Of a DNA stretch of 64,000 nt, positions 40,233 to 61,580 are shown piece after piece (position 1 is the stretch's first letter; every line of letters begins with the position of its first letter). The notes below the pieces were generated by a model that saw nothing but the letters and a program-made list of their open reading frames with translations, had not been told where the DNA came from and did not search any database. The DNA comes from Bacillota bacterium. Lineage in GTDB: Bacteria > Bacillota > Desulfotomaculia > Desulfotomaculales > Ammonificaceae. The stretch covers positions 35,932-99,931 of the forward strand of contig JBFMBK010000007.1 in NCBI GenBank assembly GCA_040755295.1, read 5' to 3'. The translations under genes and the position numbers were made by a program.

Positions 40233-40748
40233 ATGAAGAAAGTAATTGCCATATTCAGCGTCCTGCTCCTTGTCTTAGGTATACCGGCAACAGCCCTTGC
40301 GGCTACGGATACAACCAATGTTACGGGAGACATCGCAGAAACGATTTCCATCAGCACGCCGGCAACGATCGCTCTGGGCGCCCTGACGGTAGCAGCGAAC
40401 AACACGAGCGCCGACCAGACGCTTACCGTTTACGCCAACAACTCGAGCAAGACGGTGTCTCTCACGGTGTGTGACAACAATCAGGTTGCCGACATCGGGA
40501 AAATGGCGTCAGGGGCAAATATTCTGACTGACCCGCTTAACGTAAAAGGCGGGGACGTGGCCGCTTACACCGCCCTGCCCGAAGTCGCAGCCAGTACGAT
40601 CACCTTGGAGAATGCGGGTGCGGTAAACGGCGCCACGGGACAGTACCAGGTTACTGATTTCAGCGTGAGGCAGTACGTGTACTGGAGCGATGAGCAGGCT
40701 GCCGGTTACGCCATCACCCTGCTCTTTACAACCGGTTACACCACTTAA
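40233..40748 (+). CDS. secreted 171-aa protein consisting only of the CTD shared with the three giant proteins
   Basis: Signal peptide MKKVIAIFSVLLLVLGIPATALA/AT. The mature part aligns by eye along its length with the last ~135 aa of the giants (ISISTPATIALGAL~ISIIAPDGVSGWSL; VRQYVYWSDEQAAGYAITLLFTTGYTT~FKQTVGWVDQPLSGGYSYKIVVTFTASVTV). Confidence 0.85.
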   Translation: MKKVIAIFSVLLLVLGIPATALAATDTTNVTGDIAETISISTPATIALGALTVAANNTSADQTLTVYANNSSKTVSLTVCDNNQVADIGKMASGANILTDPLNVKGGDVAAYTALPEVAASTITLENAGAVNGATGQYQVTDFSVRQYVYWSDEQAAGYAITLLFTTGYTT

Positions 40749-41299
40749 CGGTTTGGGGGCGGTTATCGCCCTTCAGGATACCGGGCGTGAGGGCTTGAAG
40801 ACTTAACGGTGCCGGGATGCGCAGAATGCTGACCGGCACCCTCCAATTGGCCTGTAAGGTTCCGTCGGCGGTGGAAACGTTGAGCGCCCCGGCAACATGG
40901 GAACCCCTGCCGTACTCAGGAACATTCACGCGAAGCAGGTGTCTAAGTGATGTGAGGGTTGTTTCGATTAAGCCGGTACAGATAAAGACAGGCGGAACTT
41001 AGAAGATAAAAAGGGAGGTCGTGTGGCAGGGGAGGTGTTTACAATTCCGAGGAAGCGCCCGGACGGTGGGTTCGGTTTCGTTCATTAACTTATGGCCTCT
41101 CCCGCTTTAAACCATTTGATTGTCGCGGAGGGGAATGCCGTGAACGGACAGCCGCCTGGTTATAAGACAAGTCCATGTGCGACAACTTCCGGATTCGAGC
41201 CGAATGCCGGCAGGGTTGTCTTTTGCTTTTTACGGGCGGGTTCTGCATGTCAGACGCAATTATTCTACCATTATCGGGCTTTGGCAAGGGGGTAAAAAG

Positions 41300-42688
41300 T
41301 TGAGAAAGACGTTATCAGGGATTGTCGCTGTTTTGACGTTTATGTTAATTGTCGCCGTCTTTGGGGTTGAACGGGCCGGCGCGGCCTTCAGCGTCGGCGG
41401 CGCCATGGTGGACATGGAGGCTTCTCCCGGAACATATAAACATGTAATGCAGGTAAGCCTGGGACCCGACGACGCCGCCACCGATGTCCAGGTGATACTG
41501 GGGGGCCTCGGCCAGCAGTCCGACGGGGTCGTGAAGGTCCTGTCGCCGGCTGAAGACACCAGCCCTTATTCGGCATGCGGCTTCATCAGTCTGGACCAAA
41601 GCCGGTTTCACGTCGGACCGGACCAAAGCGTTCAGTTCAACGCCTTTATTAACATTCCGGAGAGCGTGGGCGCGGGGGGCAGGTACGCCGCTATCCGGGT
41701 CTGCACCGTTCCCTCGGGCGGGGGTACGCTGCAGGTTGCATCCGGGGTGGACATCCCCGTCAAGCTCACCATTAAAGGAACGAGTCTGACGCATACCGGT
41801 GAGATTAACGGACTCGGCGCCGGACCCGTAACCGTAGGAAAACCGGTAGAGATATCTACAACATTCAGAAACACCGGAAACCACCATTTCAAAATTAAGG
41901 GCTTTGTCACGGTAAGCAACGCCGACGGGCAGACGATCGGCAGCGCATCCATCCCTCTTACGGCTGCCAACGTGATTCCGACCATGTCCCGGCTGCTGAG
42001 ATCGACCGTTACGCCCGTAAGCGTTCTCACTGCAGGTGAATACACGATACATGCCAAGATAATGGCTGAGGACGGCGCCGTGCTGGACGAGGCCGAGACC
42101 AAATTCACCGTGAACCCGGAGGAAGACTTCACAGATATCGCCGGGCACTGGGCTGAGAATGATATTAAAACAATGGCGCGACTGGGCATCGTCAGGGGCA
42201 TGGGGGATAAAAGGTTCAACCCCTCGGGTGCGGTAACACGGGCGCAGTTCGCCGGTTTTCTTATCCGTAGTTTAAACATCCAAGAAACCCGGCCTTCTGA
42301 GGGCTATTTCGAGGATGTACCCTCGGACGCCTGGTACTATGGGGCGGTGGAGACGGCCTACGCCAACGGACTTGCCTTCGGTTACGGAGACGGGACCTTT
42401 AAGCCCGATGCGAACATAACGAGGGAGGAACTTGCGGCGATGGTGGTGAGGGGCCTTAATAAAGGTGGAAAGACAGTGGCCCCGGCGGACCATAAGGTTC
42501 TGTCGCAGTTCGTAGATAAGTGGAAAATAAAACAGTGGGCGCGGGATTCGGCAGCTATCGCCGTCAGGGAAGGCCTCATAAAGGGTCAGGAAGGCAAGCG
42601 GTTTGCGCCGTCTAAAAACGCTACCAGGGCGGAAGCGGTTGTAATGCTGAAGCGGATGCTGGTCAGCCTTGGAAGACTGTCCGGATGA
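41300..42688 (+). CDS. S-layer-homology (3x SLH) anchored protein with two-beta-domain N-terminal region (DUF916/DUF3324-like), paralogue 1
   Basis: TTG at 41300 after aaggggg. Signal peptide LRKTLSGIVAVLTFMLIVAVFGVERAGA/AF. The C-terminal SLH repeats are FTDIAGHWAENDIKTMARLGIVRG.., FEDVPSDAWYYGAVETAYANGLAFGYGDGTFKP.. and ..WARDSAAIAVREGLIKG. It is a paralogue of 48240-49697. Confidence 0.85.
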   Translation: MRKTLSGIVAVLTFMLIVAVFGVERAGAAFSVGGAMVDMEASPGTYKHVMQVSLGPDDAATDVQVILGGLGQQSDGVVKVLSPAEDTSPYSACGFISLDQSRFHVGPDQSVQFNAFINIPESVGAGGRYAAIRVCTVPSGGGTLQVASGVDIPVKLTIKGTSLTHTGEINGLGAGPVTVGKPVEISTTFRNTGNHHFKIKGFVTVSNADGQTIGSASIPLTAANVIPTMSRLLRSTVTPVSVLTAGEYTIHAKIMAEDGAVLDEAETKFTVNPEEDFTDIAGHWAENDIKTMARLGIVRGMGDKRFNPSGAVTRAQFAGFLIRSLNIQETRPSEGYFEDVPSDAWYYGAVETAYANGLAFGYGDGTFKPDANITREELAAMVVRGLNKGGKTVAPADHKVLSQFVDKWKIKQWARDSAAIAVREGLIKGQEGKRFAPSKNATRAEAVVMLKRMLVSLGRLSG

Positions 42689-42827
42689 GTGAGGGGGAAC
42701 CTATAGCTTAAAACGTAGGCAAAGACTGAAGGTCGTGACAGGCGGCGTTGCGGAGCTTTATTACGAGCGAAGCGGCGACGGTCCGAAGGCGAATCGCTCT
42801 GCGAGGAAAAGGACGGAGAAATTACCC

Positions 42828-45800
42828 ATGGTACTCTTGATGCGGCAAAAACCGAAGCATAGAAACCGCTATTTGTTATTGCGGCAAAGTCTGATGACAG
42901 CCGTAATGGTTGCTTGCTGCTTTATCTGCACCGGCACCGCCGCCCTGGCCGCGGGCTGGAGGACCGAGACGGTGGACAGCGGCGGGGTTGTCGGAGAATA
43001 CACGGGCATAGCCGTAGATTCGTCCGCGTACGCGCACATCAGCTATTACGACGGCACCAACACCGACCTGAAGCACGCCTACCAGGACAGCAGCGGCTGG
43101 CACACCGAGTTCGCGCAGGCATCGGCCGCAAACGATATCGGACAATGGACGTCGATAGACCTGGATGGGTCCGATTACCCATACATAAGCCACTACGGCG
43201 CGAGCGGCAACAACCTGAAATATACCTACCAGAACGTTTCGGGCTGGAACAACGAGGGACCGGATTCGACGGGCGACGTGGGCAAGTACACCTCCACAAA
43301 AGTGGATGCGTCGAATTACCCACACGTCAGTTATTACGACGCTACCAACATCTACCTGAAGTACGCTTATAAGGATGCCGGCGGCTGGCACATAGAGACG
43401 GCGGACACCGGTGCGGGGACATGGACTTCCCTGGCGCTCGACTCGTCAGGCTACCCGCACATCAGCTACAAATATTCCGGGACCAGTGATCTGAGGTACG
43501 CCTATAAAGACGCCGGCGGTTGGCACATCGAGAGCGTGGATACCGCGGGCAACACCGGGGGCCACACCGCTATCGTCCTGGACGGCTCGAACTACCCGCA
43601 CATCAGCTATCGCGACATCACCAACGCCAAATTGAAATACGCCTACAAGGACGGTTCGGGCTGGCATATCGAAGACGTGACCGTGGCCGGCAACGATGCA
43701 TGGTATACCTCGATTGCGCTTGATTCGTCGGGTTATCCGCATATCAGTTACTATGACTACGTAAACTTTGACCTCGGTTACGCTTATAAGGACGGCTCGG
43801 GCTGGCACATCAGTACCGTGGACGGCACAGGGGACGTCGGGGCGTACACCGCGATAGCGCTGGTGTCCGATATCCCCCGGATAAGCTACTACGACGGTAC
43901 CAACGGCGACCTGAAGTACGCCTGGTGGGACCCCGATACCGTCGCGCCTACGGTACAGAGCACCGACCCGGTTGATAGCGCTACCGATGTGATCGTCGGG
44001 AAAACAATTACCGTAACCTTCTCTGAGAATATCCAGGCCGGCTCGGCTTACGCGAGCGTAAACATAAAGGACCAGACCGGTGCGGATGTGGCGTTTGCCA
44101 AGAGCATCGCCGGCGATGTCCTCACCATCGACCCGACGAGCAATTTGAGTTATAGCGTGAGTTATACCGTGTATGTGCCCGCGAATTCAATAAAGGACAT
44201 GGGGGACAACGGCCTGGCGGCCGACTGCACGTTCAGTTTTACGACCGAAGCCGACACAACGCCGCCGGCGGTGCAGAGTACGGACCCGGCCAACGGCGCT
44301 GCCGGCGTGGTCGTGGGCAAAACGATCACGGTCACATTCAGTGAAAACATCCAGGCGGGCGACAATTACGCTCAAATCACATTGAAGGATAATAACAACA
44401 ATAATGCCGCTTTCACCAAGAGCATCGCCGACGCGGTGTTGACCATCGATCCGACCGGCGACCTCAACAGCAATTTAACCTACACCGCATCGATTCCCGC
44501 GGGTGCCATCAAAGACTTACTCAACAACGCGACTACAAGCGAATACAGCTTTAGCTTTACCACCGAGAATACGGGTTCCACCGCGACGGTGGACAGCACG
44601 GGCAACGTCGGGCAGTACACATCCATCAAGGTGGACGGGTCAAACAATCCTCGTATCAGTTACTACGACGTCACCAACGCCGACCTGAAGTACGCTTACA
44701 AGGACGGCAGCGGCTGGCACACCGAGACTATAGATAGTACAGGCACTGTGGGTTTGCATACCTCACTTGCCATTGACGCTTCCGGTTACCCCAGGATCAG
44801 TTATTCCGACAATACGAACTATGACCTGAAGTACGCTTACAAAGACGCCGCCGGCTGGCACACGGAAACCGCCGATAGTGGCGGCAGTGTGGGGCAATAC
44901 TCTTCTATTGCTCTTGACGGTTCCGGCTACCCGCATATCAGCTATCATGACTGGATTTTCAACTACGACCTCAAGTACGCTTACAAAGACGCCGGCGGCT
45001 GGCATGCCGAAACGGTGGATGGTGCAGGGAGTACAGGTACATATACCTCCATCGCGCTTAGTGTTTTGAATTACCCTTATATAAGCTACTACGATTACAC
45101 CAACTATGACCTGAAGCTGGCTTACAAGGACGCCGGCGGGTGGCATACCGAGACCGTGGACGGCGCGACCTACATGGTGGGTTCTTATACCTCCATAGCG
45201 CTTAATGGTTCCGGTTATCCGTGCATCAGCTACTATGACGATTCCAACGACGATCTGATGTACGCCTATAAGGACGCCGGCGGCTGGCATACAGAGACCG
45301 TTGACAGCACGGGCAGCGTGGGATCGTATACATCATTGGCCCTCGATACTTCCGGTTACCCGCATATCAGCTATTATGACGGCAGCCCACTCGATTTGAA
45401 ATACGCTTATAAGGACGGCTCCGGGTGGCATCTTCAAACCCTGGACAGTAACGGCACCGTAGGGCAATATACGTCGATAGACATCGACTCATCCAATTAC
45501 GCGCACATCAGCTATTACGACACGACCAACGGTGACCTAAAGTATATCTGGACGGGCGACACCAGTGCGCCGACGGTGAGCAGCACGGGCCCGGCATCCG
45601 GCGCGACCGGCGTACTCGTCGGTCAGACAATTACCGTCAATTTCAGCGAAAACGTGCAGACCGGGGACAATTACGCAAGCATCAACCTGAAGGATGAATC
45701 CGGCAATGACGTGGCCTTTGTCAAAAGCATCAACGGTGCGGCGCTTACGATCGACCCGACCAGCAACCTTGATTACAGCGTAACCTACACGGTCTACGTC

Positions 45801-48227
45801 CCGGCCGGCTGCGTCGAAGACATGGTAGGCAGCGCCCTGGCCGCCGACAACAACTTCAGTTTCACCACGGAGGCGGACACTTACGGGCCCACGGTGAGCA
45901 GCACCAATCCCGGTAACGGTACGGGTTGCGTGCCGACAGGCCAAACCATTACCGTTACCTTCGGTGAAAACGTCCAGGCGGGAAGCAGCTATGCGAGCAT
46001 CAACCTGAAAGACCAGTACGGCAATAACACGGCTTTTGGCAAGAGCATCAACGGCCAGGTGTTGTCCATCGACCCTACCAGCAACCTTAAGTATTCGGTG
46101 ACCTACACGGTCTATGTTCCCGCGGACTCGATCGACGACCTGCTGGGGAACGGGACGGACAGCGACTATACCTTCAATTTCACCACCGGAACCGGCACCG
46201 GTGACATGACGATCGTTGACGGCACGGGCTCGGTGGGGCAATATGCGTCGATAGCACTTGACGGTTCCGGCTACCCGCACATCAGTTACTACGACAGCTT
46301 CGTGAACTACGACCTTAAGTATGCCTATAAGGACGCCGGCGGCTGGCACACCGAGACGTTGGACAGCGCTGGGAGCGTGGGTACGTATACTTCTTTGGCT
46401 CTCGACGCATCCAATTATCCGCACATCAGTTATTACGACGGCACGAACTACGACCTCAAGTACGCCTATAAGGACGCCGGCGGCTGGCACACCGAAACCG
46501 TGGACAGCGCGGGGAGCGTGGGACAGTATACGTCGATCGCCCTTGATAATTCAAATTACCCGTATATTAGCTATTACGACGCTACTAACTATGATCTCAA
46601 GTATGCGTATAAGGACGCCGGCGGCTGGCATGTAGAGACCGCGGAGGGCGCCAACAGCGTGGGAATGTTTACGTCCATATCCCTTGATGCGTCGAACTAC
46701 CCGCACATAAGCTACTACGACAACGTACCCAACTACGATCTGAGGTACACGTACAAGGACGCCGGCGGCTGGCACGCCGAAACCGTGGACAACAGCGCTA
46801 CCTATCCCGGCCAGTACACGTCGATAAAGCTGAACGCGTCCGGTTACCCCCACATCGGCCATTACGACGGTTCCAGCGCCGACCTCAAGTACGCCTATAA
46901 AGACGCCGGCGGCTGGCACTTGGAAACCGTCGACAGCGCGGGGAGCGTCGGATCTTATACATCATTGGATCTCGACGCGTCGGACTACCCGCACATCAGT
47001 TATTTTGACGGCGGTAACTGGGACCTGAAATACGCCTTTAAGGACGGCAGCGGGTGGCATACATACACGGTTGATTGCACGGGGATGGTCGGACAGTTCA
47101 CGTCGCTGGTCCTCGACACGAACGACGTGGCGCATATAAGCTACTACACGGTAACAAACGCCGACCTAAAGTACGTTAGTTGGTCGCCGGGAAGCAGCCC
47201 GGCGGTAGACAGCACCGACCCGGCGGGCGGGACCGTTGACGTGGTGGTCGAAAAAACCGTTACCGTTACCTTTGACGCGGACATTCAGGCCGGCGACAAC
47301 TACGCCCAGATAGACGTGAAGCACCAGAACGGCACAAGCATTCCCTTTACAAAGAGTATCGCGGGCGCGGTGCTGACGATCGACCCGACCGGCAACCTGG
47401 CCAACAGCGTCAGCTACACGGTGTACGTCCCGGAAAACGCGGTGAAAGACCTAAACAACAACGGACTGGCCGACGATTACACCTTCAGCTTCACCACCGA
47501 GGCGGACGCCGGCGCGCCGACGGTGCAGAGCACCGACCCGGCAAACGGCGCCACCAGCGTGGCGATAGACAAGACCATAACCGTCACCTTCAACGAGGAC
47601 ATCCAGGCGGGTGACAACTACGGACTTGTCAACCTGAAGGACCAGGGGGGCGTCGATGTGGCGTTTACCAAGAGCATCGCCGGCGCGGTGTTGACCATCG
47701 ACCCGGACAGCGACCTCAGCAACAGCGTTACGTATACCGTTTACGTTCCAGCGGGCTCGGTGAAAGACCTTACAAACAACGCCCTTGCTGCCGACTACAC
47801 CTTCAGTTTTACCACCATAAGCGGGTCGACCACCATCAGCATCATCGCGCCGGACGGCGTCAGCGGTTGGAGTCTGGACCCGTCCGCCGGCCAGCCCGAG
47901 ACAGAGTCCGGCACCCTTTCCGTTACCGTTGATCCTGCCGGCACACCCTGGGAGGTCACGGCGGCCGACAGCGACACCGTCAATACCAACGGGAGGATGA
48001 CCGCCTGGAACGGTTCCTACGACACCGACAGCAAACTGCAGAACGCGATGAAGATTGCGGGAGATTACGAGGTGACTTTGCCCAGCGGCGGTAAGATCGC
48101 CGACGGCGCCGGGGGAGGGTCCGTCCCGGTGACCTTCAAACAGACGGTGGGCTGGGTGGACCAGCCGCTATCGGGGGGCTACTCCTATAAGATTGTTGTC
48201 ACCTTTACCGCATCGGTCACGGTGTAG
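42828..48227 (+). CDS. giant secreted protein 1: [7-bladed propeller - Big_5 - Big_5] x3 - CTD
   Basis: The ORF is open from 42735. The ATG at 42828 gives the signal peptide MVLLMRQKPKHRNRYLLLRQSLMTAVMVACCFICTGTAALA. It has 21 copies of the ~47-aa repeat (G.YTSIALD.SGYPHISYYD..N.DLKYAYKDAGGWH.E.VD) and 6 Big_5-type Ig domains (P.V.STDPANGA.GV...TITVTFSENIQAG.NY..I.LKD....V.F.KSI.G.VLTIDP...L....YTVYVP....KD...N.LA.D..FSFTT). No SLH, LPXTG or TM anchor. Confidence 0.9.
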   Translation: MVLLMRQKPKHRNRYLLLRQSLMTAVMVACCFICTGTAALAAGWRTETVDSGGVVGEYTGIAVDSSAYAHISYYDGTNTDLKHAYQDSSGWHTEFAQASAANDIGQWTSIDLDGSDYPYISHYGASGNNLKYTYQNVSGWNNEGPDSTGDVGKYTSTKVDASNYPHVSYYDATNIYLKYAYKDAGGWHIETADTGAGTWTSLALDSSGYPHISYKYSGTSDLRYAYKDAGGWHIESVDTAGNTGGHTAIVLDGSNYPHISYRDITNAKLKYAYKDGSGWHIEDVTVAGNDAWYTSIALDSSGYPHISYYDYVNFDLGYAYKDGSGWHISTVDGTGDVGAYTAIALVSDIPRISYYDGTNGDLKYAWWDPDTVAPTVQSTDPVDSATDVIVGKTITVTFSENIQAGSAYASVNIKDQTGADVAFAKSIAGDVLTIDPTSNLSYSVSYTVYVPANSIKDMGDNGLAADCTFSFTTEADTTPPAVQSTDPANGAAGVVVGKTITVTFSENIQAGDNYAQITLKDNNNNNAAFTKSIADAVLTIDPTGDLNSNLTYTASIPAGAIKDLLNNATTSEYSFSFTTENTGSTATVDSTGNVGQYTSIKVDGSNNPRISYYDVTNADLKYAYKDGSGWHTETIDSTGTVGLHTSLAIDASGYPRISYSDNTNYDLKYAYKDAAGWHTETADSGGSVGQYSSIALDGSGYPHISYHDWIFNYDLKYAYKDAGGWHAETVDGAGSTGTYTSIALSVLNYPYISYYDYTNYDLKLAYKDAGGWHTETVDGATYMVGSYTSIALNGSGYPCISYYDDSNDDLMYAYKDAGGWHTETVDSTGSVGSYTSLALDTSGYPHISYYDGSPLDLKYAYKDGSGWHLQTLDSNGTVGQYTSIDIDSSNYAHISYYDTTNGDLKYIWTGDTSAPTVSSTGPASGATGVLVGQTITVNFSENVQTGDNYASINLKDESGNDVAFVKSINGAALTIDPTSNLDYSVTYTVYVPAGCVEDMVGSALAADNNFSFTTEADTYGPTVSSTNPGNGTGCVPTGQTITVTFGENVQAGSSYASINLKDQYGNNTAFGKSINGQVLSIDPTSNLKYSVTYTVYVPADSIDDLLGNGTDSDYTFNFTTGTGTGDMTIVDGTGSVGQYASIALDGSGYPHISYYDSFVNYDLKYAYKDAGGWHTETLDSAGSVGTYTSLALDASNYPHISYYDGTNYDLKYAYKDAGGWHTETVDSAGSVGQYTSIALDNSNYPYISYYDATNYDLKYAYKDAGGWHVETAEGANSVGMFTSISLDASNYPHISYYDNVPNYDLRYTYKDAGGWHAETVDNSATYPGQYTSIKLNASGYPHIGHYDGSSADLKYAYKDAGGWHLETVDSAGSVGSYTSLDLDASDYPHISYFDGGNWDLKYAFKDGSGWHTYTVDCTGMVGQFTSLVLDTNDVAHISYYTVTNADLKYVSWSPGSSPAVDSTDPAGGTVDVVVEKTVTVTFDADIQAGDNYAQIDVKHQNGTSIPFTKSIAGAVLTIDPTGNLANSVSYTVYVPENAVKDLNNNGLADDYTFSFTTEADAGAPTVQSTDPANGATSVAIDKTITVTFNEDIQAGDNYGLVNLKDQGGVDVAFTKSIAGAVLTIDPDSDLSNSVTYTVYVPAGSVKDLTNNALAADYTFSFTTISGSTTISIIAPDGVSGWSLDPSAGQPETESGTLSVTVDPAGTPWEVTAADSDTVNTNGRMTAWNGSYDTDSKLQNAMKIAGDYEVTLPSGGKIADGAGGGSVPVTFKQTVGWVDQPLSGGYSYKIVVTFTASVTV
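42954..43931 (+). repeat. propeller array 1 of giant 1 (7 blade repeats, velcro-type closure)
   Basis: It starts with an isolated GWRTETVD strand and ends after DLKYAWWD without one. Seven ~47-aa units were counted by eye. Confidence 0.75.
44577..45560 (+). repeat. propeller array 2 of giant 1 (7 blade repeats)
   Basis: TATVDSTGNVGQYTSIKVD... through ...DLKYIWTGD. Seven units counted by eye. Confidence 0.75.
46200..47185 (+). repeat. propeller array 3 of giant 1 (7 blade repeats; most uniform copies)
   Basis: MTIVDGTGSVGQYASIALD... through ...DLKYVSWSP. Adjacent units share long identical DNA stretches, for example tataaggacgccggcggctggcacaccga at 46325 and 46466. Confidence 0.75.
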
Positions 48228-48239
48228 GGGGAGCGTATC

Positions 48240-49697: not shown

Positions 49698-49724
49698 TTA
49701 GTTAAGATAGCCGCAGGTTAAGAA

Positions 49725-51294: not shown

Positions 51295-51326
51295 ATGCGG
51301 GTGTAAACTAACAGACGTGAGTAAAA

Positions 51327-51358
51327 AGAGCACCGCGGGCGCGGTGCTCTTTATTTTG
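51327..51358 (+). terminator. rho-independent terminator
   Basis: agagcaccgc / gcggtgctct GC-rich stem followed by ttatttt. Confidence 0.75.
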
Positions 51359-51558: not shown

Positions 51559-54500
51559 TTGAAAGCTGGTCGAACTATGGTTCTCGTAAGGTGGGTAACC
51601 CGTTTCGCTTTCAGGTGTTGTCTGCCCAGACGCAGAATGGTACTGGGGACGGCGCTTTTTTTCTTTATACTTGCGGTTGTTGGGACGTGTGACGTTGCCT
51701 TGGCGTTTCAGACTCCGGGATACTGGGCAACGGAGTACGTCGCCTACGAGGGGCACACCGTAGGAAGGTTTTCATCGCTTGTACTTGACGGGTCAGGAAA
51801 TCCCCACATCAGCCATTACGATGCGACTAGCGGCGACCTGCTCTATTCATACGAAGACGGCTCAGGCTGGCACACCGAAAACGTGGACGGCGCCGGGAGC
51901 GACGTGGGGAAGTACACGTCCATCGTCCTTGACGGCAGTGGTTACCCCCATATCAGCTACTACGACACCACCAACGGCAACCTGAAATACGCTTACAAGG
52001 ATGCCGGCGGCTGGCACGCGGAGACCGAGGACCAGGACACGGCCGGCAACGTCGGGCAATATACGTCGCTGGCCTTGAACGGGTCCGGGTATCCATGCAT
52101 CAGTTACTACGACGTTAGCAACACCAATCTCAAGTATACCTATAAAGACGCCGGCGGCTGGCATGCCGAGAACGCCCATGGTTCGGCCAACGATGTTGGG
52201 AAGTACTCGTCCATGAAGCTGAACGCGTCCGGGTACCCCTGTGTCGGCTACTACGATGCGACGGCCGGCGACCTGAATTACGTCTATAAAACCGCCGGCG
52301 GCTGGCAGGCGCCCGCCCAGGTGGACGGCGCCACGAACAACCAGGGGCAGTACTCGTCGCTGGCGTTTAACGCCTCCGGGTATCCGTGCATCAGCTACAT
52401 CGCCGTTGCCAACAACAATATCAGGTACGCCTGGTGGGACGGCGCAGCCTGGAACAAACAGGCCGCATCCGCCGGGATCTTTCAGGGCACGGATACGTCC
52501 CTCGCCTTTGACAACAGCGATCTGCCTGCGATCAGTTATTGCGATTTGTCCGGTGACCTGAGTTACGTGTACAAAGACGCCGGCGGCACCTGGTGGTCTC
52601 AACACCCGAACGTAGCTTGTGGATCAACTTATCAAACCTCTTTGAAATTCGACGCTGACGGCAACCCACGCATCAGCTGTTACTACTCGACCACAGGGAT
52701 ATTAGGTTATGCTCGGTGGGTCTACGATGCCGCTGCGCCGACGGTACAGAGCACCGACCCGGCAAACGGCGCCACCGGCGTGGCGCTTAATAAAACCATT
52801 ACCGCCACTTTCGACGAGAACATTCAGCAGGGCGCCAACTGGAGCAGCATCGCCCTAAAAGACCAGGCCGGCGCCGACGTTGCTTTTGCCAAGAACATCG
52901 CCAACAGCGTCCTTACCATTGACCCGTTTAGCAATTTCAACTACGGCGTGACCTACTGGGTGTACGCCGTGGCCGGTTCGGTAAAGGACATGGCCGAGAA
53001 CGGTTTGGCGGGCGACTACGTGTTCAGCTTTACCGCCGTGGCTGATACGACGGCCCCTACCGTCAGCAATACGAACCCTTCTAACGGCGCCATGTACGTT
53101 CCCCTGACCAAGACGATAACCGTCACTTTCAACGAGAACATCCAGGCCGGGGACAACTACGGCAGCATTACCTTGAAGGACAGTGCGGAAACAACCGTGG
53201 CTGTCACCAAAAGCATCAACGGTGCCATACTTACAATCGACCCCGACGGCAACCTCGACTATAGCGAAACCTATACGGTGCGGCTTCCGGCCGGTGCTAT
53301 CGAGGACGTGTGGGGGAACGGCCTTGCCGGTGACTACACCTTCAGCTTCACCACGTCAGGCTGGTGGACCGAGACCGTGGACGGCGCAAGTGCCAACGTG
53401 GGGCAATGGACTTCGATTAAGATCGATGCTTCCGGTTATCCGCATATCAGTTATTACGACACCACCAATACCGATCTTAAATACACTTACCAGGACGCCG
53501 GCGGCTGGCACACCGAGACGATCGACGGCGCAGGTGTCAGCGTGGGGCAGTATACGTCCTTGGCCCTTGATACTTCCGACTATCCGCGCGTAAGCTATTA
53601 CGACACGACCAACGGCGACCTAAAGTATGCATATAAAGACGGGTCTGGCTGGCACACTGAGCAGGCGTCCGGCGCCGGCGTCAACTCGGGTTTATACACC
53701 TCAATAATTCTTGATGCGTCCGGCTACCCCCATATCAGCTACCTTGAGTGGTACAACTCTGGTCCATACGGAGAACCTTTATATAATCTCAAGCATGCTT
53801 ATAAGGACGCCGGCGGCTGGCACACCGAGACGGCGGACGGCGGTGATTGTTTCGGCGACACTACTTCGATCGACCTGGACGCGTCCGGTTATCCCCACAT
53901 CAGCTATTGCAGCGCGATATACGATGTGTGGCAGGATACTTATGTCGCCAACCTCAAATATGCGTACAAGGACGGGTCGGGGTGGAACTTGAGTGCCCCT
54001 GATAGTGCGGGTGACATCAGCGGTCACTGGCCGTCTCTGACCCTGGATGATTCTGATTATCCTCATATAAGTTATCAAGATAGCGCCCACCTGGAGTACG
54101 CATATAAGGACGGTAGCGGCTGGCATTACACCACTGTCGATAACTCAGCGGGTTCATGTACGTCTATCAGCCTGGACGTTTCCGGGTATCCGTGTATAAG
54201 TTACAGCGGCGGGCTTAAATACGCCTATAAAAACGCGTCCGGCTGGCACACGGAAACCGCGGACAGCGCAGGCTACTATACGTCGTTTGCCTTCGACACG
54301 TCCGGCCTCCCTCATGCCAGCTACTGGGACAACGCCAACGGCGACCTGAAGTATGCTTACCGGCCGGCCGATGTCTACCTGCCGACGGTACATAGCACCA
54401 ACCCTGCCGATGCGGCCGTTAACATCCCGGTAACCAAGACCGTCACGGTCACCTTCAGCGAAAACGTGCTGGCAGGCGCCAACTACGGACTGATCACCCT

Positions 54501-56400
54501 GAAGGACGGGGACGGCGCCGACGTGGCGTTTTCCAAGAGTATCAACGCCGCGGTGCTGACCATCGATCCGAACGGCGACCTTGAACGTAGCGTCACCTTT
54601 GCGGTTTATCTTCCTCCCGGAGCGGTCAAGGACACCGCGGATAATGCACTGGCCGACAGCTGCAGTTTCAGCTTTACCACCACGGCCTGGCAAATAACTA
54701 CCGTGGACGGTTCAGGGGGAGGTTATACGTCAATAGCTCTCGACGTATATGGGTATCCCCACATAAGTTACACAGCCGGCAGTACGTTGAAATATGTCTA
54801 TCAAAATGCCTCAGGCTGGCATACGGAAAACGTGGCAAACGCCCGCGTGGACGCTATGTGGACTTCAATCGCCCTGGATGCGTCGGGGAAACCGCATATT
54901 AGTTTCTGTGACTATTATTGGGATGAATTCTGGAACTATGATGGAGACTTAATATACGCTTTCAAAAACGGAAACTGGCAGACATACAATGTGGATAGTG
55001 CCGGCGACGTTGGTTATTACAATTCAATAAAAGTAGACTCAGGGTACCCGCACATCAGCTACTTCGACGATACCAACAACGACCTGAAATACGCTTCCAA
55101 GGACGCCGGCGGCTGGCATACGGAAACCGCAGACAATACAGGCAACGTAGGTAAAAACACGTCAATAGCCATTGACGGTACCGGGTATCCGCACATCAGC
55201 TACTTCGACGATACCAACTACGACCTTAAATATGTATACAAGGACGGCGGCGGCTGGCACGCCGAGACCGTGGACAGCGCCGGCAACGTGGGTTCGTACA
55301 CTGCGATCGCTTTGGATGCTTCGAATTACCCCCATATCAGCTATTACGACTATACCAATACCAACCTTAAATACGTGTACCAGGACGGTTCCGGCTGGCA
55401 CGCCGAAACCGTGGACGGCGCAAGCGCAACCGTAGGTTGGTACACATCAATAGCTTTGGGCCCTTTTAATTACCCGCGCATCAGTTACTATGACAATACC
55501 AACGGCGACCTCAAGTACGCGTACAAAGACGGTTCGGGCTGGCACGCCATGCAGGCGGACGGAACGGAAAGCAGCGTAGGCACGTACACGTCGCTGGCTT
55601 TGGACGCCTCGTATAACCCGCATATAAGCTACTACGACGGCGCCAATTACGACCTGAAGTACGCTTATCGGGATTTCTCTGCGCCGACAATCCAGAGCAC
55701 CGACCCGGCAAACGGCGCCACCGGGGTGGCTGTAAACAAGACCATTACCGTCACCTTCAGCGAGGACGTCCGGGCGGGCGGCAACTATCCGCAAGTTAAT
55801 TTGAAGCATCAAGACGGCAGCAACGTCGCATTTACCAAGAGCATCGCCGGCGCGGTGCTCACCATCGATCCCACAAGTGACCTGAGCAACAGCGTCACCT
55901 ACACCGTTTACGTTCCGGCGGGTTCGATAGAGGACTTAACCGATAATGCACTCGCCGCCGACTACAACTTCAGCTTTATTACCACTTCCGGCGGCGGCGG
56001 ACCAACCATCTCCATTACCCCCCCCCCTGGTATCAGCGGCTGGAGCCTGAACCCGTCTGCAAGCCAGCCCCAGACACAGGCCGGGACTCTTATCGTCGGA
56101 GTGGATCCCGACGATGAGTCCTGGGAGGTTACGGCGGAGGACGCCGACACCGCGAACACCAACGGCAAGATGACAGCCTGGAACGGTTCTTACGACACCG
56201 GCAGCAAATTACAGAACGCGATGAAGGTAGCGGCGGAATACGAGGTGACGCTGCCCGTCGGCGGCAAGATCGCGGATAATACCGGCGACCAGTCTGCTGA
56301 TGTGACCTTCAAGCAGACCGTAAGTTGGGCGGACCCGCCGCTGTCCGGCGGTTACTCCTACAGGATTATTGTTACCTTTACCGCATCGTTAACGGTATGA
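51559..56400 (+). CDS. giant secreted protein 2: propeller - Big_5 x2 - propeller - Big_5 - propeller - Big_5 - CTD
   Basis: 1613-aa ORF with alternative starts at 51577 and 51637. Signal peptide ..MVLGTALFFFILAVVGTCDVALA/FQ. The propellers lie at about 51718-52728, 53356-54372 and 54683-55674, and the CTD at 55987-56397. Confidence 0.9.
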   Translation: MKAGRTMVLVRWVTRFAFRCCLPRRRMVLGTALFFFILAVVGTCDVALAFQTPGYWATEYVAYEGHTVGRFSSLVLDGSGNPHISHYDATSGDLLYSYEDGSGWHTENVDGAGSDVGKYTSIVLDGSGYPHISYYDTTNGNLKYAYKDAGGWHAETEDQDTAGNVGQYTSLALNGSGYPCISYYDVSNTNLKYTYKDAGGWHAENAHGSANDVGKYSSMKLNASGYPCVGYYDATAGDLNYVYKTAGGWQAPAQVDGATNNQGQYSSLAFNASGYPCISYIAVANNNIRYAWWDGAAWNKQAASAGIFQGTDTSLAFDNSDLPAISYCDLSGDLSYVYKDAGGTWWSQHPNVACGSTYQTSLKFDADGNPRISCYYSTTGILGYARWVYDAAAPTVQSTDPANGATGVALNKTITATFDENIQQGANWSSIALKDQAGADVAFAKNIANSVLTIDPFSNFNYGVTYWVYAVAGSVKDMAENGLAGDYVFSFTAVADTTAPTVSNTNPSNGAMYVPLTKTITVTFNENIQAGDNYGSITLKDSAETTVAVTKSINGAILTIDPDGNLDYSETYTVRLPAGAIEDVWGNGLAGDYTFSFTTSGWWTETVDGASANVGQWTSIKIDASGYPHISYYDTTNTDLKYTYQDAGGWHTETIDGAGVSVGQYTSLALDTSDYPRVSYYDTTNGDLKYAYKDGSGWHTEQASGAGVNSGLYTSIILDASGYPHISYLEWYNSGPYGEPLYNLKHAYKDAGGWHTETADGGDCFGDTTSIDLDASGYPHISYCSAIYDVWQDTYVANLKYAYKDGSGWNLSAPDSAGDISGHWPSLTLDDSDYPHISYQDSAHLEYAYKDGSGWHYTTVDNSAGSCTSISLDVSGYPCISYSGGLKYAYKNASGWHTETADSAGYYTSFAFDTSGLPHASYWDNANGDLKYAYRPADVYLPTVHSTNPADAAVNIPVTKTVTVTFSENVLAGANYGLITLKDGDGADVAFSKSINAAVLTIDPNGDLERSVTFAVYLPPGAVKDTADNALADSCSFSFTTTAWQITTVDGSGGGYTSIALDVYGYPHISYTAGSTLKYVYQNASGWHTENVANARVDAMWTSIALDASGKPHISFCDYYWDEFWNYDGDLIYAFKNGNWQTYNVDSAGDVGYYNSIKVDSGYPHISYFDDTNNDLKYASKDAGGWHTETADNTGNVGKNTSIAIDGTGYPHISYFDDTNYDLKYVYKDGGGWHAETVDSAGNVGSYTAIALDASNYPHISYYDYTNTNLKYVYQDGSGWHAETVDGASATVGWYTSIALGPFNYPRISYYDNTNGDLKYAYKDGSGWHAMQADGTESSVGTYTSLALDASYNPHISYYDGANYDLKYAYRDFSAPTIQSTDPANGATGVAVNKTITVTFSEDVRAGGNYPQVNLKHQDGSNVAFTKSIAGAVLTIDPTSDLSNSVTYTVYVPAGSIEDLTDNALAADYNFSFITTSGGGGPTISITPPPGISGWSLNPSASQPQTQAGTLIVGVDPDDESWEVTAEDADTANTNGKMTAWNGSYDTGSKLQNAMKVAAEYEVTLPVGGKIADNTGDQSADVTFKQTVSWADPPLSGGYSYRIIVTFTASLTV

Positions 56401-56450
56401 TTGCTGTATAACATAAGCTTGCAGAAAACCTTAAAGGTTCTTTGCGGAAT

Positions 56451-56484
56451 ACAAACCTGCAGTTAAATGCAGGTTTGTTTATTA
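56451..56484 (+). terminator. rho-independent terminator
   Basis: acaaacctgca / tgcaggtttgt 11-bp stem with loop gttaaa, followed by ttatta. Confidence 0.75.
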
Positions 56485-56879
56485 TAACAGTTGTTTGGCC
56501 CGCGGTTTGCCGAACCGGCAGACCGCCAAGCCACCGGGGTTCTATAATCAGTCGTACGACTCTGATGGATACCGAATGCGCCTGGCGACTTAAAATTGTC
56601 AAAAAATTCTGACAAATAAAACCAGAATTTTCTCTAAAGAAACACAACCGCAATAACGAAAATTATTATGTAAATAAGTATGGCCTCCTAACATATCACA
56701 ATTAAAACCGTAGCCTATTGTACCATATTGCGAAAAATAATTTCTAACGCTCGCAGCCTATTCAATATTACTAATCCAAAGACATTAAGGTGTTGCCTGA
56801 AGACTTTCTAAGGCTGAAAGGCTTTAGCGGGAGGGCGAGGCGAGTGGTTCCAAGAGAACCGGCCGGGCAAATAATCGGC

Positions 56880-59800
56880 ATGTATCGGAAATTCGCCAGT
56901 ATAAGTTTTGTCCTGGCATTGGCATTCTTTTTTCTTTTGCTGAGCGCCGGCCCCTGGAGTGTCCACACAACGGCTTTGGCCGCGCCCGCTGTTCTTAATA
57001 CCGACCCGGCCGACGGCGCTACCGGCGTAGTAACGACCAAGACGATCACAGTTACTTTTGACGTATACATACAGGCCGGTTCCGCCTACGACACCATCGC
57101 TCTGAAAGACCAGAGCGGCGCCGACGTGGCGTTTAGCAAGAGCATTACCGACAACGTGCTCACGATAGACCCGACCAGTCTTCTCGAATGTAGTGTGACT
57201 TACTGGGTTTATATACCGGCTCTATCTGTAGAGAACCTTTCCGGCGAGCCTTTGCAGAGTGACTACAACTTCAGCTTTACCACTGAAGCGGCGCCTGTGG
57301 TGAGCAGCACCGATCCCACCGACGGCGCCACCGATATCAGGGTAAACAAAACCGCAACGGTTACCTTCGGTAAAAACATCCAGGCAGGCGCTGCTTACGC
57401 TGCTATCGCTCTTAAGGATCAGAGCGGCGCCGACGTTCCTTTCGCAAAGACCATCGCCAGCAATGTGCTCAGCATCGACCCGACCAGCGACCTGAATTGC
57501 AGCGTCAGCTACTGGGTCTACGTTCCCGCCGGCGCTATCGCCGACACGTCAGGAAATCCTACGGCGGCCGACTGCAACTTCAGCTTTACTACCTCTCCGG
57601 GCAAATGGTATTGCGAAATTGCGGATGCGACGGCCGACATCGGTCACTGGACCTCCTTAGCTTTAGATGTATATGGTCAGCCGCACGTAAGTTACTACTA
57701 TGTTACCGGCGGTGACCTGATGTACGCGTACAAAGATACCGCCTGGAATACGGAGACTGTGGACAGCGGAGACAGCGTGGGGCAGTACACCTCGATGGCT
57801 CTGGATGACGCGAATTATCCCCATATCAGCTACTACGATGTTACAAATACCGCTCTTAAATATGTCTATAAGAACGTTTCAGGTTGGCAAGTGGAGACCG
57901 TCGACGGCGCCGGCGACGTAGGCACGTATAATTCCCTAAAACTGGACTCATCGGGGTACCCGCACATCGCTTATTGCGATACGACCAACGGCTACCTGAA
58001 GTACGCTTACAAAGACGCAACCGGCTGGCACATAGAAAGTGTTGTCCGAATCGGCGGCGCCAGCGCCTGGATTTCTCTCGCTATTGATGCTAATGGATAC
58101 CCGCATATGAGTTACCTTTACTCCGATAATTGGGACCTCAAGTACACGTACAAAGACGTTTCCGGCTGGCACACCGAGACCGTGGAAAGTTCCGGCTATC
58201 CCGGGTATTACTCATCACTGGCCATTGATGCGTCCGGCCGTCCACATATCAGTTACGTAAAAGGCGCTGAGGCCATAGGTGGTCCGACCAACGACCTGAA
58301 GTACGCCTACAAAGACATTGACGGCTGGCATATCACGGCGGTGAACACTCCCGGTTGGGACTACTACTCGTCTTTGGTTCTTGACAGGTCGGGGTATCCG
58401 CATATCGGCCACTGGGACGCATCTAATAAATATCCCAGATATTCGTATCAGGATGTTTCCGGCTGGCACAAAGAGACCGTGCCCGACGGTTTCTATTCCG
58501 GCGAGTTTGTTTCTCTCGCTCTTGACGCTTCCGATAATCCGCGGATGACTTACTACAGAAGCGTCGGCGACGACCTGAAGTACGCCTGGTGGCTGACCGA
58601 CGCGCCGACGGTGACCGGAACCGACCCCCGCCGCGGCGCCGCCGATATCGCAATCGGCAAGACGATCTGCCTGACCTTCACCGAGGATGTGCAGGAAGGT
58701 GACAACTACGGTTCGATCACCTTGAAAGACGGGGGCGGCAGCGACGTTTCATTCACCAAGACGTTAAGCGGGAAGACGCTGACCATCGATCCCGACAGCA
58801 ACCTGGCCAACAGCACGACCTTCACGGTGACGATTCCAGCCGGCGTGGTGAAGGACGTGACGAACAACGTACTGGTAAGCGACTTCAGCTTCAGCTTTAC
58901 CACAGAACCGGCCCCTGCAGTCAGCGCCACGAACCCGGAAAGCGGCGCCACCGACGTCCGGATCGACCAGACGATTACTGTAACGTTCAATAAAAACGTC
59001 CAGGCCGGCGACAACTATGGGCAGATAAACCTGAAGGACGGAGACGGCGGCGATGTGGCTTTCAGCAAGAGCATCGCCGGCAGCGTCCTTACCGTCGACC
59101 CGACCGGCGTTCTCGAATATACCGTTACTTATACCGTGTACATTCCGGCGGGATGTGTAAAAGATGCTTCCGGCACCGGGCTGCCGGGGGATAACGACTT
59201 CAGCTTCACCACCGAAGCGCTGCTTGCGGTGTGGGACACCGATCCCGCCAGCGGCGCCGTAAATGTCCCGTCGGCCCAGACGGTCACTGTTACCTTCAGC
59301 CAGGACATACAGGCACATACCAACTATGCCTCGATCAATCTGAAACACCAGGACGGCAGTGATGTCGCTTTCACCAAAGGCATCAACGGCGCCGTGCTTA
59401 CCGTCGATCCTAACACAGACCTCAGCTACGGCGTGACGTATACGGTCTACGTGCCCGCCGATTCGGTCGCCACACTGGGTGGCAGCGGGCTGCCGTCGGA
59501 CTATAATTTGAATTTTACCACAGAGGCCGGAGGCAGCTGGCAGTTGCAAATCGCGGACGAATGGGGCCTGACCGGCTTGTGGACGTCCATAACCCTGGAT
59601 GTCTATGGGTACCCTCGTATCAGTTATTATTACGATTCCAGCGACGACCTGAAGTATGCGTATAAGGACTCCTCCGGCTGGCACACGACGACCGTGGATT
59701 CCGGGGGCGGTGTGGGGACGAATACTTCCATAGAAATGAATTCCGCCGGCTATCCCTGCATAAGTTACCGTGACGACACCAATGCCAATGTCAAGTACGC

Positions 59801-61580
59801 TTACCAAGACGCAAGCGGCTGGCATATGGAGCTTGTGGATGCGGAATACAGCGCCGGTTCCAATCAAACCGGTCTGGGTTTTGATTCTACCGGCTACCCC
59901 CATATCAGTTATCTTAGAATGATAGATGCCGGCACTTATCGCCTGATGCACGCATGGAAGGAGGCTGACGGCTGGCATAACGAGATCCTGGACTCCGATC
60001 TCAGCAGACCGGGACAGTGGTCATCCCTCGCCATAGATTCTTCCGGCGGAATCCATATCAGTTACTATCTTATCGGCGGCAACGCAACGCTGAGATACGC
60101 CTATAAACCGTCGGGCGGCGCCTGGAGCATTACCGACGCTGACCCCAGCGCGTGGATAACAGGTGAGTACTCGTCAATAGCCCTGGACGAATCGGGTTAT
60201 CCTCATTTCAGTAGTTCCGACCGCACCAACTGGGACCTGAGGTATGTTTATAAGGACGGCGCCGGCTGGCACAGGGAGAACGAGAATATTGACAGCGCCG
60301 ACCAGGTCGGAACGTGGACATCGATAGGGGTGAAAAACGGCTATCCGCATATAAGTTATTATGACATCACCAATACAGCCTTGAAATACGCCTATAAAGA
60401 CGCTTCGGGCTGGCATGCGGAAACAGTGGACAACAGTGCAAGTGTCGGCCAGTATACCTCAATTGTCCTGGACGTTTCCGGAAGCCCGTATATCAGTTAC
60501 TACGACGCGACTAATTTTGACTTGCGGTGTGCTTATTGGCTGCCCGCCAAACCAATGGTCGCCGGCGTCGATCCCCTCCGGAACTCTGCAAGCGTTACAC
60601 TGGACAAGACCATCACCGTCGGTTTCACCGAGGATGTGGTTTCGGGCGACAACTACGCCGGTATCGCCTTGAAGGACCAGAGCGGCGCGGACGTCCCGTT
60701 CACCAAGACGCTAAGCGGCAGGATGCTGACCATCGATCCGAACGACGATCTTAGTTACAGCGTTACCTATACGGTCTACGTCCCGGCAGGTTCGGTTAAA
60801 GACTCAGGCGGCAACGCCCTGGCCGGAGACTTCGACTACAGCTTTACAGCAGAACCGGACATATACCCGCCGGCCGTAAGCGGCACCGATCCGGCGAACG
60901 GCGCTACCGGCGTGACACTCGACAGAACCATAACAGTCACTTTTGATGAAGACATTCAGGCAAGCGCCAACTATGCCTCAATCAACCTCAAGCACGAGGA
61001 CGGCAGCGATGTTGCGTTCGGCAAAAGCATCGCCGGCGCGGTACTCATCATTGATCCGGACGCCAACCTAAGCGGCAGCGTCACCTACACCGTTTATGTC
61101 CCGGCAGGCTCAGTAAAGGACCTTGCCGACAATGATCTGGCTGCCGACTTCAACTTCAGTTTCACCACGGAGGCGCCGTCAGCCACCATCACGATCACCG
61201 CGCCCGCCGCTATCTCAGGCTGGAGCCTCAGCCCGGCTTCAAACCAGCCCCTTACGCAGTCCGGAACGCTTTCGATTGACGTCGAACCCGGCACTGAATC
61301 CTGGGAGGTTACCGCCTCCGACGCGGATACCGTGAATACGAACGGAAAGATGACCGCTTACAACGGTTCATACGATCTTGCGAAGAAGCTGCAGAACGCG
61401 ATGAGCGTGGCGGCGGGTTTCGAGGTGACCCTGCCCGCCGGGGGGAATATCGCTGAAAACACCGGCGACCAATCGGTGGATGTAACCTTCAAGCAGACGG
61501 TGGGATGGACTGACGAAATACTGTCCGGGGGTTATACCTACCGGATCGTCGTCACCTTCATCGCGTCGATTACGGTTTGA
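56880..61580 (+). CDS. giant secreted protein 3: Big_5 x2 - propeller - Big_5 x3 - propeller - Big_5 x2 - CTD
   Basis: The ORF is open from 56790. The ATG at 56880 gives the signal peptide MYRKFASISFVLALAFFFLLLSAGPWSVHTTALA/AP. The propellers lie at about 57597-58596 and 59530-60546, and the CTD at 61170-61577. Confidence 0.9.
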   Translation: MYRKFASISFVLALAFFFLLLSAGPWSVHTTALAAPAVLNTDPADGATGVVTTKTITVTFDVYIQAGSAYDTIALKDQSGADVAFSKSITDNVLTIDPTSLLECSVTYWVYIPALSVENLSGEPLQSDYNFSFTTEAAPVVSSTDPTDGATDIRVNKTATVTFGKNIQAGAAYAAIALKDQSGADVPFAKTIASNVLSIDPTSDLNCSVSYWVYVPAGAIADTSGNPTAADCNFSFTTSPGKWYCEIADATADIGHWTSLALDVYGQPHVSYYYVTGGDLMYAYKDTAWNTETVDSGDSVGQYTSMALDDANYPHISYYDVTNTALKYVYKNVSGWQVETVDGAGDVGTYNSLKLDSSGYPHIAYCDTTNGYLKYAYKDATGWHIESVVRIGGASAWISLAIDANGYPHMSYLYSDNWDLKYTYKDVSGWHTETVESSGYPGYYSSLAIDASGRPHISYVKGAEAIGGPTNDLKYAYKDIDGWHITAVNTPGWDYYSSLVLDRSGYPHIGHWDASNKYPRYSYQDVSGWHKETVPDGFYSGEFVSLALDASDNPRMTYYRSVGDDLKYAWWLTDAPTVTGTDPRRGAADIAIGKTICLTFTEDVQEGDNYGSITLKDGGGSDVSFTKTLSGKTLTIDPDSNLANSTTFTVTIPAGVVKDVTNNVLVSDFSFSFTTEPAPAVSATNPESGATDVRIDQTITVTFNKNVQAGDNYGQINLKDGDGGDVAFSKSIAGSVLTVDPTGVLEYTVTYTVYIPAGCVKDASGTGLPGDNDFSFTTEALLAVWDTDPASGAVNVPSAQTVTVTFSQDIQAHTNYASINLKHQDGSDVAFTKGINGAVLTVDPNTDLSYGVTYTVYVPADSVATLGGSGLPSDYNLNFTTEAGGSWQLQIADEWGLTGLWTSITLDVYGYPRISYYYDSSDDLKYAYKDSSGWHTTTVDSGGGVGTNTSIEMNSAGYPCISYRDDTNANVKYAYQDASGWHMELVDAEYSAGSNQTGLGFDSTGYPHISYLRMIDAGTYRLMHAWKEADGWHNEILDSDLSRPGQWSSLAIDSSGGIHISYYLIGGNATLRYAYKPSGGAWSITDADPSAWITGEYSSIALDESGYPHFSSSDRTNWDLRYVYKDGAGWHRENENIDSADQVGTWTSIGVKNGYPHISYYDITNTALKYAYKDASGWHAETVDNSASVGQYTSIVLDVSGSPYISYYDATNFDLRCAYWLPAKPMVAGVDPLRNSASVTLDKTITVGFTEDVVSGDNYAGIALKDQSGADVPFTKTLSGRMLTIDPNDDLSYSVTYTVYVPAGSVKDSGGNALAGDFDYSFTAEPDIYPPAVSGTDPANGATGVTLDRTITVTFDEDIQASANYASINLKHEDGSDVAFGKSIAGAVLIIDPDANLSGSVTYTVYVPAGSVKDLADNDLAADFNFSFTTEAPSATITITAPAAISGWSLSPASNQPLTQSGTLSIDVEPGTESWEVTASDADTVNTNGKMTAYNGSYDLAKKLQNAMSVAAGFEVTLPAGGNIAENTGDQSVDVTFKQTVGWTDEILSGGYTYRIVVTFIASITV

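Follow-up and report, generated by a model that had tools for sequence, protein, structure and literature searches.

The window analysed here is a stretch of 64,000 nucleotides from an uncultured Bacillota bacterium of the family Ammonificaceae (GCA_040755295.1, contig JBFMBK010000007.1, positions 35,932 to 99,931), and at 40.2-61.6 kb of this window lie seven open reading frames (ORFs), A to G, all on the + strand. Here, I propose that this locus probably encodes a non-covalently assembled surface display complex of the WxL/WxLIP type, tethered to the cell wall by SLH (S-layer homology) repeats. Three lines of evidence carry the proposal: the N-terminal region (N-region) of the two SLH proteins, B and D, is a true homologue of WxLIP (DUF916 plus DUF3324), and is called the holder below; the giant proteins C, F and G end in one C-terminal domain (CTD), which also occurs as the small secreted protein A; and genes for the holder and for the CTD family stand side by side in distant lineages of bacteria and archaea.

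The kinship of the holder with WxLIP is apparent in both structure and sequence. The N-region of B was modelled with AlphaFold2 (AF2) as a pair of beta-sandwich domains fixed relative to each other, with a softer loop at residues 111-120 (pLDDT, the predicted local distance difference test, 95.1; predicted TM-score, pTM, 0.87). When the model was compared with the PDB by Foldseek, the top three matches were all Enterococcus faecium WxLIP (E 7.5e-11 to 1.9e-10, TM-score 0.58-0.65), among them 9i1y_A (E 7.5e-11) and 9i25_C, the latter in complex with a long WxL protein (E 1.4e-10). The next ~45 matches listed are mostly PapD-like chaperones, namely FimC, CfaA, DraB, CsuC, Caf1M, FaeE and SfaE; for FimC, CfaA, CsuC and Caf1M the E-values range from 2e-8 to 1e-6 and the TM-scores from 0.40 to 0.57, and neither PF00345 nor PF02753 is among the families listed for the N-region. 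The N-region of D is 52% identical to that of B, and D matches the hidden Markov model (HMM) of the holder family with an E-value of 6e-125. A profile of the B/D N-region collects 41 relatives, and hhalign matches the holder-family profile to E. faecium WxLIP across 177 columns, with a probability of 80.8% and an E-value of 1.3e-5. Among the 43 holder-family members, 23 match PF06030 (WxLIP_PGBD, formerly DUF916) at E<=1 and five match PF11797 (WxLIP_HBD, formerly DUF3324); in one of them, P0191, the two models follow each other colinearly on domains 1 and 2, as expected, and a bridging member, P0196, reaches the Pfam threshold for PF06030 and matches E. faecium EfmWxLIP1 at E 1.3e-7. Most relatives of the holder consist of the two-domain region, a Pro/Thr linker, a transmembrane helix and a basic tail, and a few stop after the second domain; in the clade of B and D, the SLH repeats stand in place of the WxLIP membrane helix.

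The features of the locus are as follows, all on the + strand and in positions of the window.

A, 40233..40748, +: 171-aa free-standing secreted protein with signal peptide (residues 1-23), extension ATDTTNVTGDIAE and a pilin-like domain of S-type (see below)
B, 41300..42688, +: wall-anchored WxLIP-like protein
N-region of B, 41381..42124, +: two beta-sandwich domains, DUF916-like then DUF3324-like (AF2, Foldseek, hhalign)
SLH region of B, 42128..42685 (limits approximate), +: three repeats (Pfam PF00395, E 1.8e-41)
C, 42828..48227, +: 1799-aa giant with three units, each a seven-blade repeat array plus two Big_5 domains, followed by the CTD
CTD of C, 47823..48224, +: pilin-like domain of C-type, ending at the C-terminus of C
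D, 48240..49697, +: second wall-anchored WxLIP-like protein (N-region ~48315-49070, three SLH repeats ~49137-49694)
E, 50050..51294, +: 414-aa secreted protein made of one seven-blade repeat array, with neither CTD nor anchor
Terminator-like hairpin after E, 51325..51352, +: 12-bp stem followed by a run of T
F, 51559..56400, +: 1613-aa giant that combines four Big_5 domains with three repeat arrays and ends in the CTD (55996-56397)
Terminator-like hairpin after F, 56451..56478, +: 11-bp stem
G, 56880..61580, +: 1566-aa giant that combines two repeat arrays with seven Big_5 domains and ends in the CTD (61176-61577)

The first-pass annotation, made on the letters of the DNA and their translations, had described seven consecutive same-strand ORFs with Sec-type signal peptides, SLH triplets in B and D only, giants that lack SLH, LPXTG and C-terminal transmembrane segments and share one CTD of ~135 aa, and the same domain standing alone in a protein of 171 aa; each of these descriptions holds. 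A putative Sec signal, with basic n-region, hydrophobic core and AxA-type cleavage site, can be read by eye in the translated N-terminus of every one of the seven ORFs, and two of the starts were checked on the DNA, namely TTG at 41300 for B, preceded by a GGGGG ribosome-binding site, and ATG at 42828 for C. Among the seven ORFs, Pfam PF00395 matches only B and D (E 4e-35 in D). No SLH, LPXTG or transmembrane segment is found in C, F and G, which end directly in the CTD. The CTDs of the three giants are 65-72% identical to one another, and A aligns with them end-to-end (blastp 28% identity over 140 aa, E 3e-7; hhalign E 2.4e-5, probability 76%). A direct Pfam and NCBIfam search of A, the CTD, the N-regions of B and D, and E returned only SLH, Big_5 and overlapping CopC matches.

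To collect the CTD family, a profile was built from A, five close relatives of A and the three CTDs, and was searched against 1.84 billion representative proteins. It recovers both free-standing and C-terminal forms, with 240 clusters at E<=1e-3 and 83 at E<=1e-10; a word-indexed homologue search with A found 6 close relatives only. A itself is 100% identical to an NCBI protein from a metagenome assembly. The counts that follow refer to 155 sequences, that is, the 150 best profile matches of the 240 clusters together with the five close relatives of A. Of the 155, 113 stand alone as proteins of 150-200 aa, and in the other 42, which are larger, the domain always comes last in the chain; in 154 of the 155, no more than five residues separate the end of the domain from the C-terminus. 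The passengers of the large members are unrelated to one another: DUF2341, CARDB, CBM96, Flg_new_2, fn3, cohesin, Ice_binding and disaggregatase repeats. The family falls into two types, an S-type like A (61 small proteins and one large) and a C-type like the CTD of the giants (36 small and 38 large). An extension of the form T-x-[IV]-x-[GAS]-x-hydrophobic, which reads TDTTNVTGDI in A, precedes the domain in 58 of the 113 free-standing members versus 5 of the 42 C-terminal domains. No Pfam model exists for the domain, and the weak, scattered Pfam matches obtained with excised CTD-family domains include the pilin families DUF4402, CssAB and SCPU. The idea that the CTD is a sorting signal of the T9SS-CTD, PEP-CTERM or LPXTG type was considered and rejected, for it is a folded domain of 135 aa that also occurs free-standing, and no sortase or exosortase is found among the genes examined.

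Mature A was modelled by AF2 from an alignment of 47 sequences (pLDDT 97.5, pTM 0.88). Of the 50 PDB matches listed by Foldseek for this model, almost all are chaperone-usher pilins (E ~1e-3, TM-score 0.46-0.58), including CsuA/B, FimG, FimA, PapA, PapE, PapK, CfaB and the pilin domains of CsuE and PapGII; the TasA fibre takes rank 41 in the same 50. The scores are modest yet very consistent, and the predicted fold of A and of the CTD may thus be described as chaperone-usher-pilin-like.

The third line of evidence is the pairing of the genes. The holder alignment was used to scan one genome per GTDB species, which yielded 35 loci hosted by Bacillota metagenome-assembled genomes (MAGs), Chloroflexia, Dehalococcoidia, Methanothrix/Methanotrichaceae, Methanoregulaceae, Methanomicrobiales, Methanosarcinales and Patescibacteria. 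At least one CTD-family ORF is present in 30 of the 35, nearly always directly adjoining the holder and on the same strand, and these paired loci belong to Bacillota, Chloroflexota and four methanogen lineages; the five unpaired loci are one contig of 1.9 kb and four loci of Patescibacteria. The close relatives of the window keep the same order of small protein, SLH-holder and CTD giant, and the minimal locus (L001) is made of a small protein, an SLH holder and a 624-aa protein with one repeat array, one Big_5 and the CTD. The neighbourhood of L001 (SspH ... LexA-like, DUF6504, DnaE) is seen again at L003 (GCA_040757355.1), in a MAG whose other contigs (L016, L017) carry genes for holder and giant. 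At L008 and L009, in another lineage, the CTD-family gene adjoins a holder homologue anchored by a transmembrane helix; there, at 4888-8499, an Ice_binding protein with a CTD is followed by the tethered holder and by a transmembrane-anchored fn3/Pur_ac_phosph_N protein. In the Methanothrix MAGs (L028, L030-L032, L035, L038), 3-4 small CTD-family paralogues surround one holder of ~270 aa, which has neither transmembrane helix nor SLH, and some Methanothrix contigs carry several such units of paralogue array and holder in tandem. Two Patescibacteria-like loci, L012 (7237-9840) and L014, which were recovered separately and are apparently of one kind with the unpaired Patescibacteria loci, have DUF916-positive holders (P0195, P0196) flanked by two secreted proteins of 230-258 aa, which end in a G-x-Y-x-A-T-x-T-L-T strand as in the CTD family and are too diverged for the profile. 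These flanking proteins look like a third, more diverged type of partner, between the CTD family and WxL.

The first-pass annotation had likened the logic of the locus to the WxL/Csc clusters, while holding that every part differed from them. The likeness has turned out stronger than claimed and the second statement does not stand, for the N-region of the SLH proteins is itself a WxLIP homologue. In the WxL/WxLIP systems of Lactobacillales and Bacillales (PDB 9i1y, 9i25), the holder has the same tandem of DUF916-like and DUF3324-like domains, the partner domain likewise occurs both by itself, as a small protein, and as the very last part of large adhesin-like proteins, and all the components are exported by Sec; the WxL locus A of E. 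faecium, SwpA-DufA(WxLIP)-LwpA, has the same gene order of small protein, holder and large protein. The differences concern the tether, which there is a C-terminal transmembrane helix and in B and D a triplet of SLH repeats, the absence here of any Pfam WxL match, of the WxL motif contexts and of an LPXTG protein, the passengers, which here are seven-blade repeat arrays and Big_5 domains, and the host range, which here extends to Chloroflexota, Patescibacteria and methanogens. The locus is therefore best described as partly homologous to WxL clusters, two of whose defining features, the WxL domains and the transmembrane helix on WxLIP, it lacks. As a separate observation on E. faecium locus A, in several Logan assemblies (L050, 2288-3443) its WxLIP is called as two overlapping ORFs of 143 and 256 aa, which suggests a frameshift or a phase-variable site.

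The further idea of the CTD as a diverged form of the WxL domain is not supported. PF13731 (WxL) matches neither A, nor the CTDs, nor 47-49 relatives, even at E<=5-10; the CTD-family profile has no match among PDB chains at E<=10, though the long WxL of 9i25 is in the PDB; against SwpA and the C-terminus of LwpA the same profile stays at noise level in hmmsearch and at a probability of 0.3% in hhalign, a comparison with single WxL sequences only and hence of limited power. A made-up WxL-like peptide, meant to retrieve the WxL chain of 9i25 from the PDB sequences, gave no match. WxL domains carry two motif contexts, hydrophobic-x-D-x-R-G-T-x-A-G-W-x-L and a terminal T-W-x-L (PMC9772566), both of which are absent from the CTD family. 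The 'GWSL' near the start of the CTD lies outside the position and context of either motif. An identity of CTD and WxL is rejected at the sequence level, and the predicted fold is of pilin type. By eye, the order of elements in CTD and WxL is similar (P..FG/LG strand, V-x-D, G-rich turn, L..L, terminal G-x-Y/F-x-h-x-h-x-W/F), and this apparent common order is only a lead.

The display complex proposed here would work as follows. B and D would be exported by Sec, and their three SLH repeats would fix the holders to a wall polymer, as is established for SLH domains. The WxLIP-like pair of immunoglobulin-like domains in B and D would capture the pilin-like C-terminal domain of C, F, G and A, possibly through a beta-strand of the holder inserted into the sandwich of the partner. 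A docking of the CTD onto the holder would be well motivated because the holder is homologous to WxLIP, for which a beta-strand insertion with WxL has been predicted by AF2 (PMC10599100), because a WxLIP-WxL complex has been solved (9i25), and because holder and CTD genes are paired across two domains of life. The strict C-terminal position of the domain, together with the chaperone-like and pilin-like folds, suggests that the free C-terminal carboxylate of the partner may be part of the interface, as in PapD-pilin complexes. With the giants held in this way, their repeat arrays and Big_5 rods would extend outward and offer surfaces for binding.

Several points weigh against this reading. The two anchors, B and D, face four CTD-bearing proteins; B and D themselves remain below every Pfam WxLIP threshold; the structural E-values of A are marginal (~1e-3, with TM-scores of ~0.5); the CTD family is without sequence similarity to real WxL domains; and the small A-like protein at L003 (1791-2300) has no holder or giant within 10 kb. 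Moreover, the 50 structural matches listed for A do not include the WxL chain of 9i25, and therefore the CTD may be a replaced partner instead of a diverged WxL.

Three other explanations of the locus have to be weighed. In the one that comes closest, although it appears unlikely, the locus would build a chaperone-usher-like pilus without an usher, by donor-strand exchange, with A polymerising as its N-terminal extension fills the groove of the next subunit, with the giants as tip adhesins, since their pilin domain lacks a free N-terminal extension, and with B and D, fixed to the wall, as the base or as a chaperone capping the final subunit. It draws on the fold of A, with its matches to FimA, PapA, CsuA/B, CfaB and the pilin domains of CsuE and PapG, on the matches of the holder, after WxLIP, to FimC, Caf1M, CsuC and CfaA, on the extension, which is distributed between free-standing and C-terminal domains as between pilins and tip adhesins, and on the Methanothrix loci, where 3-4 small paralogues per anchor resemble major and minor pilins. 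Precedents are at hand too, since donor-strand fibres that dispense with a chaperone are known in monoderms and archaea, namely TasA (PMC9674648), threads (PMC9715654) and tafi (PMC11821415). The extension of A, however, is confidently placed in the monomer model (pLDDT ~92) and yet is not a strand according to DSSP; the locus has a single small gene, and neither a strong terminator nor any other hint of highly differential expression follows A; the TM-scores reach only ~0.5; and the nearest relatives, the WxL systems, have been described as complexes and not as fibres.

A direct role of the CTD as wall- or S-layer-binding module would make the SLH proteins independent neighbours with a ligand-binding role of their own. 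Binding to peptidoglycan has been reported for the WxL domain (PMC9772566, PMC10599100), the CTD is terminal like other wall-binding modules, and the small protein of L003 has no anchor beside it; this reading would nonetheless leave the adjacency of CTD and anchor in 30 of 35 loci unexplained, and the pilin-like fold is unlike any known carbohydrate-binding module, which together make it improbable. The envelopes of the hosts also differ, from methanogens free of pseudomurein, with sheaths or S-layers, to Chloroflexota and Bacillota, and no wall polymer is known to be common to the Bacillota, Chloroflexota and methanogen hosts. Least credible of all, and very improbable, is the view that there is no functional unit and that the locus grew by local duplication of secreted paralogues, the CTD being a relic of shared ancestry. 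Clearly, C, F and G are paralogues whose modules have been shuffled, and terminator-like hairpins divide at least three transcription units; on the other hand, the combination of small protein, anchor and CTD protein recurs in distant lineages with other passengers (Ice_binding, CARDB, DUF2341, fn3), and the terminal position of the CTD is invariant. Both of these readings fit the conserved pairing poorly, and the SLH-tethered display complex is retained as the preferred one.

The locus also has a likeness to chaperone-usher pili (Fim, Pap, Csu, Caf1, CFA/I). This likeness includes the predicted folds, which resemble pilin subunits in the small protein and CTD and a two-domain chaperone of PapD type in the holder, the C-terminal pilin-like domain that the tip adhesins FimH, PapG and CsuE likewise bear on large proteins, and the N-terminal extension, which here too tends to occur on free-standing members. 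The differences are that there is no outer membrane here, that the 'chaperone' is permanently anchored in the wall or membrane, and that the structural likeness is modest (TM-score 0.4-0.58), with no detectable sequence similarity. Nothing usher-like was found in the seven ORFs or in the flanking genes, and the SLH anchoring implies a wall of Gram-positive type. A bolder interpretation, which I hold to be rather doubtful, would take the WxLIP-like holders, together with the CTDs and the small protein, for what corresponds in monoderms and archaea to chaperone-usher pili, an ancient strand-complementation system of Bacillota, Chloroflexota, Patescibacteria and methanogens of which the WxL clusters of lactic acid bacteria would be one late branch, and in which a chaperone-like protein tethered to wall or membrane would hold, and possibly polymerise, pilin-like subunits tipped by giant adhesins.

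Other known surface structures resemble the locus in part. TasA, archaeal threads, bundling pili and tafi/DUF1102 fibres are likewise made of Sec-exported beta-sandwich subunits in the absence of an outer membrane, but only the system described here has a dedicated two-domain holder; TasA (Peptidase_M73) and DUF1102 are not among the Pfam matches shown for CTD-family members, and no SipW-type peptidase or DUF5305 occurs in the locus (40-62 kb). The S-layer-associated proteins of Bacillota have the same canonical C-terminal triple SLH as B and D, which carry a WxLIP-like holder instead of an enzyme or lattice domain and stand beside displayed giants that are devoid of SLH. In the literature searched, no paper was found that links WxL/WxLIP to SLH, archaea, Chloroflexota or chaperone-usher folds, although any paper accompanying 9i1y/9i25 (January 2026) falls outside the coverage of that search and may discuss the chaperone-like fold.

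As to the passengers of the giants, Pfam finds six Big_5 domains in C, four in F and seven in G, 17 in total. Counting of the P-H-I-S-Y motif, together with reading of the sequence, gives nine arrays of seven blade repeats each; C and F have three apiece, G has two and E has one. These numbers agree with those given by the first-pass annotation, in which the propeller fold itself was a reading of the sequence. The repeat is ~47 aa long, of the form G.YTS[IL]ALD.SGYPHISYYD..N.DLKYAYKD..GWH.E.VD, and occurs in 63 copies in the locus. It has no sequence match in Pfam, NCBIfam or the PDB and appears to be an unmodelled blade family, so that the arrays may reasonably be regarded as putative propellers.

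Concerning transcription, the hairpins after E and F are present at the ends of their genes, and therefore the locus probably comprises at least three transcription units. A further hairpin, GGTGCCGG...CCGGCACC, lies at 40806-40843, directly 3' of gene A, and recurs at the corresponding position in L004; no run of T follows it, and it is not called a terminator. The A-B spacer of ~550 nt was considered as a conserved regulatory element and rejected, since it is 51% identical among four relatives and only one short hairpin is common to the window and L004.

Upstream of A lies a block of signalling genes, which encode a KaiC-like ATPase, a PAS histidine kinase, response regulators, a LytTR/GHKL pair and a methyl-accepting chemotaxis protein. 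The first-pass annotation had pointed to this block immediately upstream of the surface locus; the genes are indeed there, but a functional link between the two is not supported, since synteny is limited to the closest relatives and the block is absent beside the minimal locus L001. The KaiC-like ATPase is encoded by two overlapping ORFs, 31248-32261 (337 aa) and 32231-32677 (148 aa), both matching PF06745, which may be due to a frameshift, an assembly error or a genuinely split gene.

The WxL/WxLIP systems have been treated as a speciality of Lactobacillales and Bacillales, tied to gut colonisation and virulence (PMC9772566, PMC10599100). The holder family described here is much wider than that range and uses SLH repeats, a transmembrane helix or no tether at all, and the hosts of the pair of holder and CTD are organisms of the subsurface and of anaerobic digesters, Methanothrix and Dehalococcoidia included. 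At least 240 protein clusters whose CTD-family domain has no Pfam model thereby receive a testable annotation, and the retention at the surface of giant proteins with no recognisable anchor finds a possible explanation. Finally, a PapD-like holder paired with a pilin-like partner makes a monoderm and archaeal kinship of chaperone-usher pili testable.

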